Shown: piece after piece, positions 17,934 to 25,215 of the stretch
Layout: each line of letters starts with the position of its first letter
Position numbering within the stretch: position 1 is the stretch's first letter
Origin: Escherichia coli
GTDB lineage: Bacteria > Pseudomonadota > Gammaproteobacteria > Enterobacterales > Enterobacteriaceae
Direction: 5' to 3' (one strand)
DNA length: 64,000 bases
Assembly: GCF_002854065.1 (NCBI RefSeq)
Contig: NZ_CP024147.1
Translations under genes and position numbers: made by a program
Notes under the pieces: model-generated
What the model saw: only the letters and a program-made list of their open reading frames with translations
Told to the model about the DNA's origin: nothing
Databases searched by the model: none

Positions 17934-19262
17934 ATGCATCCCACAGGCCCGCATCTCGGGCCTGATGTTCTGTTTCGAGAGTCCAAAATGAAAGTGACAT
18001 TAACGTTTAACGAACAACGTCGTGCGGCGTATCGTCAGCAAGGGCTATGGGGCGATGCTTCGCTGGCCGATTACTGGCAGCAGACCGCTCGTGCGATGCC
18101 AGACAAAATTGCCGTGGTCGATAATCATGGAGCATCGTACACCTATAGCGCGCTCGATCACGCCGCGAGCTGTCTGGCAAACTGGATGTTAGCGAAGGGT
18201 ATTGAATCAGGCGATCGCATCGCATTTCAACTGCCAGGCTGGTGTGAATTTACCGTTATCTATCTTGCCTGCCTGAAAATCGGTGCGGTTTCCGTACCGC
18301 TGTTGCCTTCCTGGCGGGAAGCAGAACTGGTATGGGTGCTTAATAAGTGTCAGGCAAAAATGTTCTTTGCACCGACGTTGTTTAAACAAACGCGTCCGGT
18401 AGATTTAATCCTGCCGCTGCAAAATCAGCTTCCACAACTACAACAAATTGTCGGCGTGGACAAACTGGCTCCCGCCACCTCTTCCCTCTCATTAAGTCAG
18501 ATTATCGCCGACAATACCCCACTGACCACGGCGATAACGACCCACGGCGATGAATTAGCCGCGGTGCTGTTTACCTCCGGAACCGAGGGCCTGCCAAAGG
18601 GCGTGATGCTTACGCATAACAATATTCTCGCCAGTGAGCGGGCTTATTGCGCGCGGCTGAATCTGACCTGGCAGGATGTCTTTATGATGCCTGCGCCACT
18701 CGGCCACGCAACGGGCTTTCTGCATGGCGTAACAGCACCATTTTTGATTGGTGCTCGCAGCGTGTTGTTAGATATTTTCACTCCTGATGCGTGTCTCGCG
18801 CTGCTTGAGCAGCAGCGTTGCACCTGTATGCTCGGCGCAACGCCGTTTGTCTATGATCTTTTGAATTTACTAGAGAAACAACCCGCAGACCTTTCAGCGC
18901 TGCGCTTCTTTCTTTGCGGCGGTACCACAATCCCCAAAAAAGTGGCGCGTGAATGCCAGCAGCGCGGCATTAAATTATTAAGTGTTTATGGTTCCACAGA
19001 AAGTTCGCCGCATGCGGTGGTGAATCTCGATGATCCTTTGTCGCGCTTTATGCACACCGATGGTTACGCTGCCGCAGGTGTAGAGATTAAAGTGGTCGAT
19101 GACGCACGCAAGACCTTACCGCCAGGTTGCGAAGGTGAAGAAGCCTCGCGTGGCCCCAATGTGTTTATGGGGTATTTTGATGAACCTGAATTAACCGCCC
19201 GAGCCCTGGATGAAGAAGGCTGGTATTACAGCGGCGATCTCTGCCGTATGGATGAAGCTGGC
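17934..19262 (+). pseudogene. fadK: 5' fragment of short-chain acyl-CoA synthetase fadK/ydiD, truncated by IS1 insertion (reading frame runs into IS1 and stops at 19287..19289)
   Basis: Track ORF 17934..19289; AMP-binding motif TSGTEGLPKG present; alternative start at 17988 (MKVTLTF). Confidence 0.85.
19254..19262. repeat. 9-bp target-site duplication (gaagctggc), left copy
   Basis: Identical 9-mer immediately flanks both IS1 ends. Confidence 0.85.
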
Positions 19263-19317
19263 GGTGATGCTGCCAACTTACTGATTTAGTGTATGATGGT
19301 GTTTTTGAGGTGCTCCA

Positions 19318-19593
19318 GTGGCTTCTGTTTCTATCAGCTGTCCCTCCTGTTCAGCTACTGACGGGGTGGTGCGTAACGGCAAAAGCACTGCCGGACATCA
19401 GCGCTATCTCTGCTCTCACTGCCGTAAAACATGGCAACTGCAGTTCACTTACACCGCTTCTCAACCCGGTACGCACCAGAAAATCATTGATATGGCCATG
19501 AATGGCGTTGGATGCCGGGCAACCGCCCGCATTATGGGCGTTGGCCTCAACACGATTTTCCGCCATTTAAAAAACTCAGGCCGCAGTCGGTAA
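19318..19593 (+). CDS. insA: IS1 InsA (transposition inhibitor / DNA-binding N-terminal part of transposase)
   Basis: 91-aa [40 protein letters not shown]...; GTG start. Confidence 0.9.
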
Positions 19594-20015
19594 CCTCGCG
19601 CATACAGCCGGGCAGTGACGTCATCGTCTGCGCGGAAATGGACGAACAGTGGGGATACGTCGGGGCTAAATCGCGCCAGCGCTGGCTGTTTTACGCGTAT
19701 GACAGGCTCCGGAAGACGGTTGTTGCGCACGTATTCGGTGAACGCACTATGGCGACGCTGGGGCGTCTTATGAGCCTGCTGTCACCCTTTGACGTGGTGA
19801 TATGGATGACGGATGGCTGGCCGCTGTATGAATCCCGCCTGAAGGGAAAGCTGCACGTAATCAGCAAGCGATATACGCAGCGAATTGAGCGGCATAACCT
19901 GAATCTGAGGCAGCACCTGGCACGGCTGGGACGGAAGTCGCTGTCGTTCTCAAAATCGGTGGAGCTGCATGACAAAGTCATCGGGCATTATCTGAACATA
20001 AAACACTATCAATAA
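19512..20015 (+). CDS. insB: IS1 InsB reading frame (expressed as InsAB' transposase by -1 frameshift)
   Basis: 167-aa ORF in the -1 frame relative to insA. Confidence 0.85.
19569..19575 (+). other. A6C slippery motif for programmed -1 ribosomal frameshift of IS1 transposase
   Basis: ttaaaaaactc read directly in the insA/insB overlap. Confidence 0.7.
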
Positions 20016-20030
20016 GTTGGAGTCATTACC

Positions 20031-20039
20031 GAAGCTGGC
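20031..20039. repeat. 9-bp target-site duplication (gaagctggc), right copy
   Basis: Identical to 19254..19262. Confidence 0.85.
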
Positions 20040-20414
20040 TATATAAAAATAACCGGGCGCAAGAAAGATATTATTGTCCGCGGCGGCGAAAATATTAGCA
20101 GCCGTGAAGTGGAAGATATTTTATTACAGCATCCTAAAATTCACGATGCTTGTGTGGTTGCAATGCCCGATGAACGCTTAGGTGAACGTTCATGCGCTTA
20201 TGTCGTGCTGAAAGCACCGCATCATTCATTATCGCTGGAAGATGTAGTGGCTTTTTTTAGCCGTAAACGGGTCGCAAAATATAAATACCCTGAACATATC
20301 GTGGTAATCGAAAAACTACCGCGCACTGCCTCAGGTAAAATACAAAAGTTTTTGTTAAGAAAAGATATTATGCGGCGATTAACGCAGGATGTCTGTGAAG
20401 AGATTGAATAAGTT
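20040..20414 (+). pseudogene. fadK: 3' fragment of fadK/ydiD (C-terminal domain of acyl-CoA synthetase)
   Basis: In frame with the 5' fragment once IS1 and one TSD copy are removed; track ORF 20109..20411 carries the C-terminal part. Confidence 0.85.
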
Positions 20415-23178: not shown

Positions 23179-24012
23179 ATGGATAATGCTGTTGATCGCC
23201 ACGTTTTTTATATTTCTGATGGTACGGCAATAACTGCGGAGGTATTAGGACACGCAGTAATGTCACAATTTCCCGTCACTATCAGCAGCATCACGCTGCC
23301 GTTTGTCGAAAATGAGAGCCGTGCACGGGCAGTGAAGGATCAGATTGACGCAATTTATCACCAGACAGGCGTGCGCCCGCTGGTCTTCTACTCCATCGTG
23401 TTGCCGGAGATTCGCGCCATCATCTTGCAAAGTGAAGGTTTTTGCCAGGATATCGTTCAGGCGCTGGTTGCCCCGCTACAACAAGAGATGAAACTGGATC
23501 CAACGCCGATTGCTCATCGTACCCATGGCCTTAACCCTAATAATCTCAATAAATATGATGCGCGCATTGCGGCGATTGATTACACCCTCGCCCACGATGA
23601 CGGCATTTCGTTGCGCAATCTGGACCAGGCTCAGGTGATCCTGCTCGGTGTTTCTCGCTGTGGTAAAACCCCCACCAGTCTGTATCTGGCAATGCAGTTT
23701 GGTATCCGCGCGGCAAACTACCCCTTTATTGCCGACGATATGGATAATCTGGTGCTACCCGCGTCGCTCAAACCGCTTCAGCATAAATTGTTCGGCCTGA
23801 CTATCGACCCGGAACGTCTGGCGGCGATTCGCGAGGAACGTCGGGAGAACAGTCGCTATGCCTCGCTTCGTCAGTGCAGGATGGAAGTCGCGGAAGTGGA
23901 AGCCTTGTACCGTAAAAATCAGATCCCGTGGATTAACAGTACCAATTATTCGGTAGAAGAGATTGCCACCAAGATCCTCGATATCATGGGCCTTAGTCGC
24001 CGAATGTACTAG
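23179..24012 (+). CDS. ppsR: PEP synthase regulatory protein (bifunctional kinase/pyrophosphorylase, DUF299)
   Basis: 277-aa ORF divergent from ppsA. Confidence 0.9.
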
Positions 24013-24023
24013 AGAACTAGTGC
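24006..24023 (+). promoter_or_regulatory. TrpR operator of the aroH promoter (GTACTAGAGAACTAGTGC)
   Basis: Near-palindromic trp-operator-like sequence read directly; overlaps ppsR stop codon. Confidence 0.6.
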
Positions 24024-24168
24024 ATTAGCTTATTTTTTTGTTATCATGCTAACCACCCGGCGAGGTGTGACACACCTCGCACTTGAAATCAGCAGCGATT
24101 GGTTTATCGTGATGCGCATCACTTCCCGGCAGTCCTGCCGTAGAAGCAACAAATTTCTGAGACTTGTA

Positions 24169-25215
24169 ATGAACAGAACTGACGAACTCCGTACTGCGCG
24201 TATTGAGAGCCTGGTAACGCCCGCCGAACTCGCGCTACGGTATCCCGTAACGCCTGGAGTCGCCACCCATGTCACCGACTCCCGCCGCAGAATTGAAAAA
24301 ATACTGAATGGTGAAGATAAGCGACTGTTGGTCATTATTGGCCCCTGCTCGATCCACGATCTCACCGCTGCAATGGAGTACGCCACCCGTCTGCAGTCGC
24401 TGCGCAACCAGTACCAGTCACGGCTGGAAATCGTAATGCGCACCTATTTTGAAAAACCACGAACTGTTGTCGGCTGGAAAGGACTAATCTCCGATCCAGA
24501 TTTAAACGGCAGCTATCGGGTAAATCACGGTCTGGAGCTGGCGCGCAAATTACTTTTACAGGTAAATGAGCTGGGCGTCCCAACCGCGACCGAGTTCCTC
24601 GATATGGTGACCGGTCAGTTTATTGCTGATTTAATCAGTTGGGGCGCGATTGGCGCACGTACTACCGAAAGTCAGATCCACCGTGAAATGGCTTCGGCAC
24701 TCTCCTGTCCGGTAGGTTTTAAAAATGGTACCGATGGCAACACGCGGATTGCTGTGGATGCTATCCGCGCAGCCCGCGCCAGCCATATGTTCCTCTCGCC
24801 AGACAAAAATGGTCAGATGACCATCTATCAGACCAGCGGCAACCCGTATGGCCACATTATTATGCGTGGCGGCAAAAAACCGAATTATCATGCCGATGAT
24901 ATCGCCGCAGCCTGCGATACGCTGCACGAGTTTGATTTACCTGAACATCTGGTGGTGGATTTCAGCCACGGTAACTGCCAGAAGCAGCACCGTCGCCAGT
25001 TAGAAGTTTGTGAGGATATTTGTCAGCAAATTCGCAATGGCTCTACGGCGATTGCTGGAATTATGGCGGAAAGTTTCCTGCGCGAAGGAACGCAAAAAAT
25101 CGTCGGCAGTCAGCCGCTCACTTACGGTCAATCCATTACCGACCCGTGTCTGGGCTGGGAAGATACCGAACGCCTGGTCGAAAAACTCGCCTCTGCGGTA
25201 GATACCCGCTTCTGA
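24169..25215 (+). CDS. aroH: DAHP synthase, tryptophan-sensitive isozyme (348 aa)
   Basis: Track ORF 24046..25215 trimmed to ATG 24169 (MNRTDELRT...). Confidence 0.95.
   Translation: MNRTDELRTARIESLVTPAELALRYPVTPGVATHVTDSRRRIEKILNGEDKRLLVIIGPCSIHDLTAAMEYATRLQSLRNQYQSRLEIVMRTYFEKPRTVVGWKGLISDPDLNGSYRVNHGLELARKLLLQVNELGVPTATEFLDMVTGQFIADLISWGAIGARTTESQIHREMASALSCPVGFKNGTDGNTRIAVDAIRAARASHMFLSPDKNGQMTIYQTSGNPYGHIIMRGGKKPNYHADDIAAACDTLHEFDLPEHLVVDFSHGNCQKQHRRQLEVCEDICQQIRNGSTAIAGIMAESFLREGTQKIVGSQPLTYGQSITDPCLGWEDTERLVEKLASAVDTRF

Follow-up and report, generated by a model that had tools for sequence, protein, structure and literature searches.

The present analysis concerns the junction between ppsR and aroH, two neighbouring genes located on the same strand of a 64-kb stretch of Escherichia coli DNA (64,000 nucleotides, analysed as a whole and hereafter called the window). 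The features discussed below are collected in Table 1. The two coding sequences are separated by an intergenic gap of 156 bp, and the upstream one ends in ATG TAC TAG (Met276-Tyr277-stop), a run of codons that also makes up the left arm of the operator described below. The interior of ppsR holds a strong antisense RNA 3' end on the minus strand at about position 23382 (1787648 in K-12), according to the data of Adams et al. 2021. About 4 kb upstream of the operator, fadK is split by an IS1 element. The interrupted gene has the length of the K-12 fadK (1701 nt) plus 777 nt, which fits an IS1 and a 9-bp target duplication; this insertion is irrelevant to the operator.

Table 1 Features of the ppsR-aroH junction and of the interrupted fadK, in window coordinates
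Feature	Position	Strand	Evidence and details
fadK, N-terminal part	17934-19289		fadK region 17934-20411
IS1 ORFs within fadK	19318-19593 and 19512-20015		
fadK, C-terminal part	20109-20411		
ppsR CDS, 277 codons and stop TAG	23179-24012	+	ORF; NCBIfam PpsR equivalog (430 bits); RefSeq annotation
aroHp1 guide RNAs	23962-81 (template, -70); 23961-80 (non-template, -91)		indicate a start at 24052 (+/-1)
Extended dyad AATGTACTAG-AGAA-CTAGTGCATT	24003-24026	+	10 RNA pairs, -13.7 kcal/mol; T-run 24030-24039; terminator-like score
TrpR operator of aroH, GTACTAGAGAACTAGTGC	24006-24023	.	consensus match, K-12 identity, conservation, literature
aroHp2 guide RNAs	24018-37 (template, -80); 24037-56 (non-template, -81)		indicate a start at 24118 (+/-1)
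aroHp1 -10 region, TGT + TATCAT (extended -10 type)	24039-24047 (hexamer 24042-24047)	+	direct reading
aroHp1 transcription start	24052 (+/-1 nt)	+	guide positions; leader to ATG (24169) of ~117 nt
Perfect 10+10 hairpin GCGAGGTGTG-A-CACACCTCGC	24060-24080	+	-15.6 kcal/mol, z -3.8; no U-run after it
aroHp2 core, TTGAAA (24083-88), 16-bp spacer, TATCGT (24105-10)	24083-24110	+	promoter scan; conserved in alignment A1
Perfect palindrome GTGATGCGCATCAC (GTGAT-N4-ATCAC)	24109-24122	.	over the aroHp2 -10 element and start site
aroHp2 transcription start	24118 (+/-1)	+	Kim et al. 2012 and guide positions; leader of 51 nt
Small hairpin CGGC-AGTCCT-GCCG	24127-24140		shared leader; consensus folding
aroH CDS (Trp-sensitive DAHP synthase)	24169-25215	+	ORF, translation; NCBIfam AroH (701 bits)

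The palindrome GTACTAGAGAACTAGTGC can be read directly in the window, across the end of ppsR. Its two CTAG cores (24009-12 and 24017-20) are 8 bp apart, and the ppsR stop codon (24010-24012) is part of the left one; only the left 7 bp of the site (24006-24012) lie inside the gene. When compared with the idealised symmetric trp operator GTACTAGTTAACTAGTAC, which we take to be the consensus represented by the crystallised trp operator, the 18-mer agrees at 15 of 18 positions (three mismatches), and it fits the looser pattern GNACTAGNNNNCTAGTNC without any mismatch. Across both strands of the 64 kb, it is the sole match this close to GTACTAGTTAACTAGTAC, where shuffled sequences lead to an expectation of 0.01. 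A first-pass annotation of this DNA had reported an operator-like palindrome beginning 4 bp before the ppsR stop codon and had interpreted it as the TrpR operator of aroH overlapping that codon. The position is confirmed, and the interpretation holds on the grounds of the consensus match, the identity of the region to K-12, the identity of AroH and the literature.

The 231 bp between positions 23950 and 24180 are 100% identical to those of E. coli K-12 MG1655 (the K-12 coordinate being the window coordinate + 1,764,266), so that the published facts about the K-12 aroH control region apply directly to the window. The locus was found in 5423 of the 5426 complete E. coli genomes, in some of them at 100%, and four sampled E. 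coli variants have altered flanking bases and an intact operator. Studies of the aroH operator go back to the 1980s. Early work on it in E. coli K-12 is said to be that of Zurawski et al. 1981, and studies of operator binding were reportedly carried out by Kumamoto et al. 1987, Klig et al. 1988, Yang et al. 1996 and Grove & Gunsalus 1987. Published work on K-12 states that TrpR represses aroH, and a portion of this literature describes TrpR as binding multiple sites in the aroH operator. For K-12, the binding is reported to require tryptophan and aroH to be derepressed in trpR mutants. In one network study, TrpR is the only input to aroH, and the targets of TrpR are given as aroH, trpLEDCBA and trpR, with ppsR unnamed.

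Two promoters drive aroH; they were named aroHp1 and aroHp2 in a 2022 preprint (bioRxiv 10.1101/2022.07.14.500123). Their start sites were back-calculated by mapping onto the window the guide-RNA positions given in the supplementary table of that preprint, a calculation that depends on the numbering convention and is accurate to +/-1 nt. The start obtained in this manner for aroHp2, 66 bp downstream of the aroHp1 start, coincides with the sole aroH start in the genome-wide data of Kim et al. 2012, which is supported by 414 reads, lies 51 nt before the ATG and corresponds to aroHp2, not to aroHp1. No start-site entry for the aroH region was found in the Cappable-seq supplementary files consulted or in the table of Mendoza-Vargas 2009. 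The two promoters have distinct features. The T and A of the TAnnnT -10 element of aroHp1 are conserved (alignment A1), and the hexamers located at -35 distance (24018-24025) match TTGACA at 2 of 6 positions and lie beneath the right arm of the operator. Because this -35 is poor, aroHp1 is missed by a simple promoter scan. The only sigma-70-like promoter that the scan returns is aroHp2, which the first-pass annotation had overlooked; its conservation among Enterobacteriaceae exceeds that of the spacer in the promoter linked to the operator.

With respect to these start sites, the operator spans positions -46 to -29 of aroHp1, with its centre at -37.5, and its centre lies at -103.5 (~104 bp) relative to aroHp2. 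It overlaps the core promoter of an aromatic/tryptophan gene, as would be expected of a TrpR operator, the gene downstream being that of the Trp-sensitive AroH. Some details of the first description have to be corrected in this light. The aroH promoter had been placed within the 3' end of ppsR, and this is accurate for the left 7 bp of the operator; its right arm, the -35, the -10 and the start site are all beyond the stop codon. The proposed aroH leader of about 150 nt is wrong, since the leaders measure ~117 nt from aroHp1 and 51 nt from aroHp2. A transcription start far from the palindrome had also been named as an observation that would speak against the assignment: the aroHp1 start is close to it, and such a distance is found only if aroHp2 is considered alone.

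A mechanism can be proposed from this arrangement. Tryptophan-loaded TrpR dimers occupy the two half-sites, each centred on a CTAG, and a tandem site next to them is probably bound too. Since the operator occupies positions -46 to -29 of aroHp1, the bound repressor would cover the -35 region of this promoter and presumably exclude RNA polymerase by steric hindrance. When tryptophan is plentiful, less of the Trp-sensitive DAHP synthase is then made. The distance of aroHp2 from both the aroHp1 start and the operator centre suggests that this second promoter probably supplies the expression that escapes TrpR. We regard it as very probable that this dyad (24006-24023) is the classical operator through which TrpR controls aroH in E. 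coli, and that repression follows these lines. The operator as such is already known and its regulation belongs to textbook knowledge; it is not a new discovery.

The evolution of the site was studied in 80 Enterobacteriaceae species taken from one genome scan for PpsR (relatives with at least 90% PpsR identity, core Enterobacteriaceae). In all of them aroH lies downstream of ppsR, adjacent to it and on the same strand, and the overlap between the operator and the end of ppsR is found in 76 of the 80. In these 76 species ppsR ends in ...RRMY-stop encoded by ATGTACTA(G/A), followed by nnn(A/G)CTAGT(A/G/T)C. In the 76 site-bearing species no variation is seen at operator positions 1-6 and 12-15, corresponding to the arms GTACTA and CTAG, and this includes the CTAG of the right arm, which is non-coding. 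The Tyr277 codon is TAC in 78 of 79 species, while the other five invariant tyrosine codons of ppsR are TAT in 11 to 61 of the 79; the ppsR stop codon is TAA in 64 species, TAG in 15 and TGA in none (79 species). The left arm of the operator is the end of ppsR, so 7 bp serve two functions. It is well supported that this overlap fixes the last tyrosine codon of ppsR as TAC and limits its stop codon to TAA or TAG.

Some lineages carry insertions between the ppsR stop codon and aroH: ~205 bp in L033 (3334-3696), ~1455 bp in L040 (3334-4946) and ~25 bp in L070 (3334-3370). The spacing between both genes reaches 361 bp in L033 and 1611 bp in L040, and in these two species a complete operator, GTACTAACAAGCTAGTAC, is present upstream of aroH, at its normal spacing from the gene. 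The 25-bp insertion of L070 is followed by a new operator, likewise complete, GAACTAGTAAGCTAGTAC. The single species in which Tyr277 is encoded by TAT is L033, where the operator has been displaced from ppsR by the insertion. In L040, TGTACTAA occurs both at the end of ppsR and at the operator, and resembles a target-site duplication. The fact that the operator stays with aroH after these insertions, together with its conservation, indicates that the element belongs to aroH and has been selected in its own right. A different kind of change is seen in the Citrobacter freundii group (L007, L008, L010-L013 and L016), where a deletion of ~30 bp has reduced the intergenic region to 125-126 bp; the leader hairpin and the -35 of aroHp2 are lost with it, and the operator, the aroHp1 -10 and GTGAT-N4-ATCAC are kept.

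Several readings of the palindrome other than that of a TrpR operator, or in addition to it, may be considered. One possibility is that it also, or even mainly, serves ppsR as its intrinsic terminator, the dyad extended to 24003-24026 forming an RNA hairpin of 10 pairs that is followed by a U-run at 24030-24039. A terminator scan selects exactly the operator dyad and its T-run, the dyad folds at -13.7 kcal/mol with a z of -3.0, and the T-run after it is found in Escherichia, Citrobacter and Salmonella. Nevertheless, only 3 of the 10 pairs of the stem are G-C, the U-run begins 4 nt past the stem, and of 77 sequences, nearly all of which have the palindrome, only 24 carry the T-run. The Term-seq tables of Adams et al. 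2021 contain no plus-strand 3' end after ppsR. Furthermore, consensus RNA folding of 77 intergenic regions recovered only the operator dyad and the small hairpin at 24127-24140, with no conserved leader structure, and the dyad stem lacks covariation and has invariant arms, as expected of a protein-binding site. We consequently think it improbable that the palindrome is a terminator, and such a role in ppsR would at most be a minor, lineage-restricted extra.

Alternatively, TrpR on its operator could at the same time be a roadblock at the ppsR stop codon, which would make the formation of the ppsR 3' end, or transcription running on into aroH, dependent on tryptophan levels. The operator covers the last 7 nt of ppsR and the two genes are adjacent and co-oriented in the whole species set, which would be compatible with this proposal. 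Yet the operator goes with aroH and not with ppsR in the species with insertions, and ppsR is missing from the TrpR targets of the network study mentioned above, so this additional function seems unlikely. Finally, that the palindrome might be a chance dyad arising from the C-terminal codons of ppsR, without any regulatory role, can be dismissed: the coding sequence (ATG TAC TAG) does constrain part of the site, but 0.01 matches are expected against the one found, the non-coding CTAG of the right arm does not vary among 76 species, the Tyr277 codon is fixed at its synonymous position, the operator is kept beside aroH after insertions and TrpR regulation of aroH is published, so that the conservation data and the published work effectively refute it. 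The TrpR operator of aroH thus remains the preferred reading.

If the operator constrains the end of ppsR, the identity of the stop codon may in turn matter to the operator. A TAG stop provides the full CTAG core, whereas TAA weakens this core at operator position 7. The perfect right arm CTAGTAC was found in none of the 14 species with a TAG stop versus 53 of the 62 with TAA (L002-L081). A tentative explanation, which we consider possible without favoring it, is that the operator governs the way ppsR ends and that the stop codon of this gene has been tuned to set the affinity of the repressor at the aroH promoter, trading off with the right arm. The compensation between TAG and the right arm is suggestive, and about three independent TAG clades underlie it, so it could be a phylogenetic coincidence resulting from shared ancestry. 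If the explanation were true, the stop codon of one gene would set the strength of the repressor at the promoter of its neighbour.

The intergenic region contains other elements. One of them is the palindrome GTGATGCGCATCAC, which extends across both the -10 element and the transcription start of aroHp2. In the window it has one match, where 0.03 are expected, and in 77 sequences its GTGAT and ATCAC arms are nearly invariant and its centre is variable. Judged from the sequences, this pattern of conservation would suit a candidate protein-binding site. Written as cGTGA-TGCGCA-TCACt, the palindrome matches the CRP core TGTGA-N6-TCACA at 8 of 10 positions; a literature search for CRP at aroH returned nothing relevant. 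Some genera (e.g. L024 and L070) have a second copy of this palindrome farther upstream, at the site of the E. coli leader hairpin.

That hairpin (24060-24080) begins 8 nt into the aroHp1 leader and may stabilise the 5' end of the mRNA. Unrelated strong hairpins occupy the same spot of the leader in Enterobacter, Leclercia and Pseudenterobacter. As a conserved RNA element, the E. coli hairpin had to be rejected: it is strong in some genera only, while elsewhere it is degenerate or missing, as in E. albertii, and more distant genera lack such a hairpin. The small hairpin at 24127-24140 has one pair that shows a compensatory change from G-C to A-U in 6 species. A search of Rfam gave no match at E <= 1 in 23800-24400.

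What this analysis adds to a known operator is modest, namely the mark that the operator has left on the final ppsR codons in the course of evolution and the invariant palindrome over aroHp2. Any annotated E. coli genome shows where the operator lies with respect to ppsR, and this position has little weight as a discovery. The locus nevertheless offers a clean example of 7 bp that are both the end of a coding sequence and half a repressor site, and the trace that this has left in evolution can be measured. An accurate map of the region, showing two promoters with leaders of 117 and 51 nt as well as the invariant palindrome on aroHp2, is also an aid to the engineering of aromatic amino acid production and to the editing of the ppsR 3' end.

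The comparison with known systems places the site as follows. Relative to the aroH operator of E. coli K-12, nothing differs: the element, the flanking genes and the position with respect to aroH are the same. The operator of trpLEDCBA, trpO, is bound by the same repressor and likewise consists of an 18-bp dyad, in which 8 bp separate the two ACTAG cores. It overlaps the -10 region of its promoter, and its repression is much stronger than that of aroH. Unlike trpO, the aroH operator lies over a -35 region, is imperfect at its outer and central positions and has a second promoter downstream. Like other regulatory sites of compact genomes, in which a site for a transcription factor shares bases with the last codons and the stop codon of the upstream gene, the aroH operator is superimposed on the end of ppsR; compared with such sites, the dual constraint can here be measured (TAC in 78/79, no TGA) and traced through 80 species.
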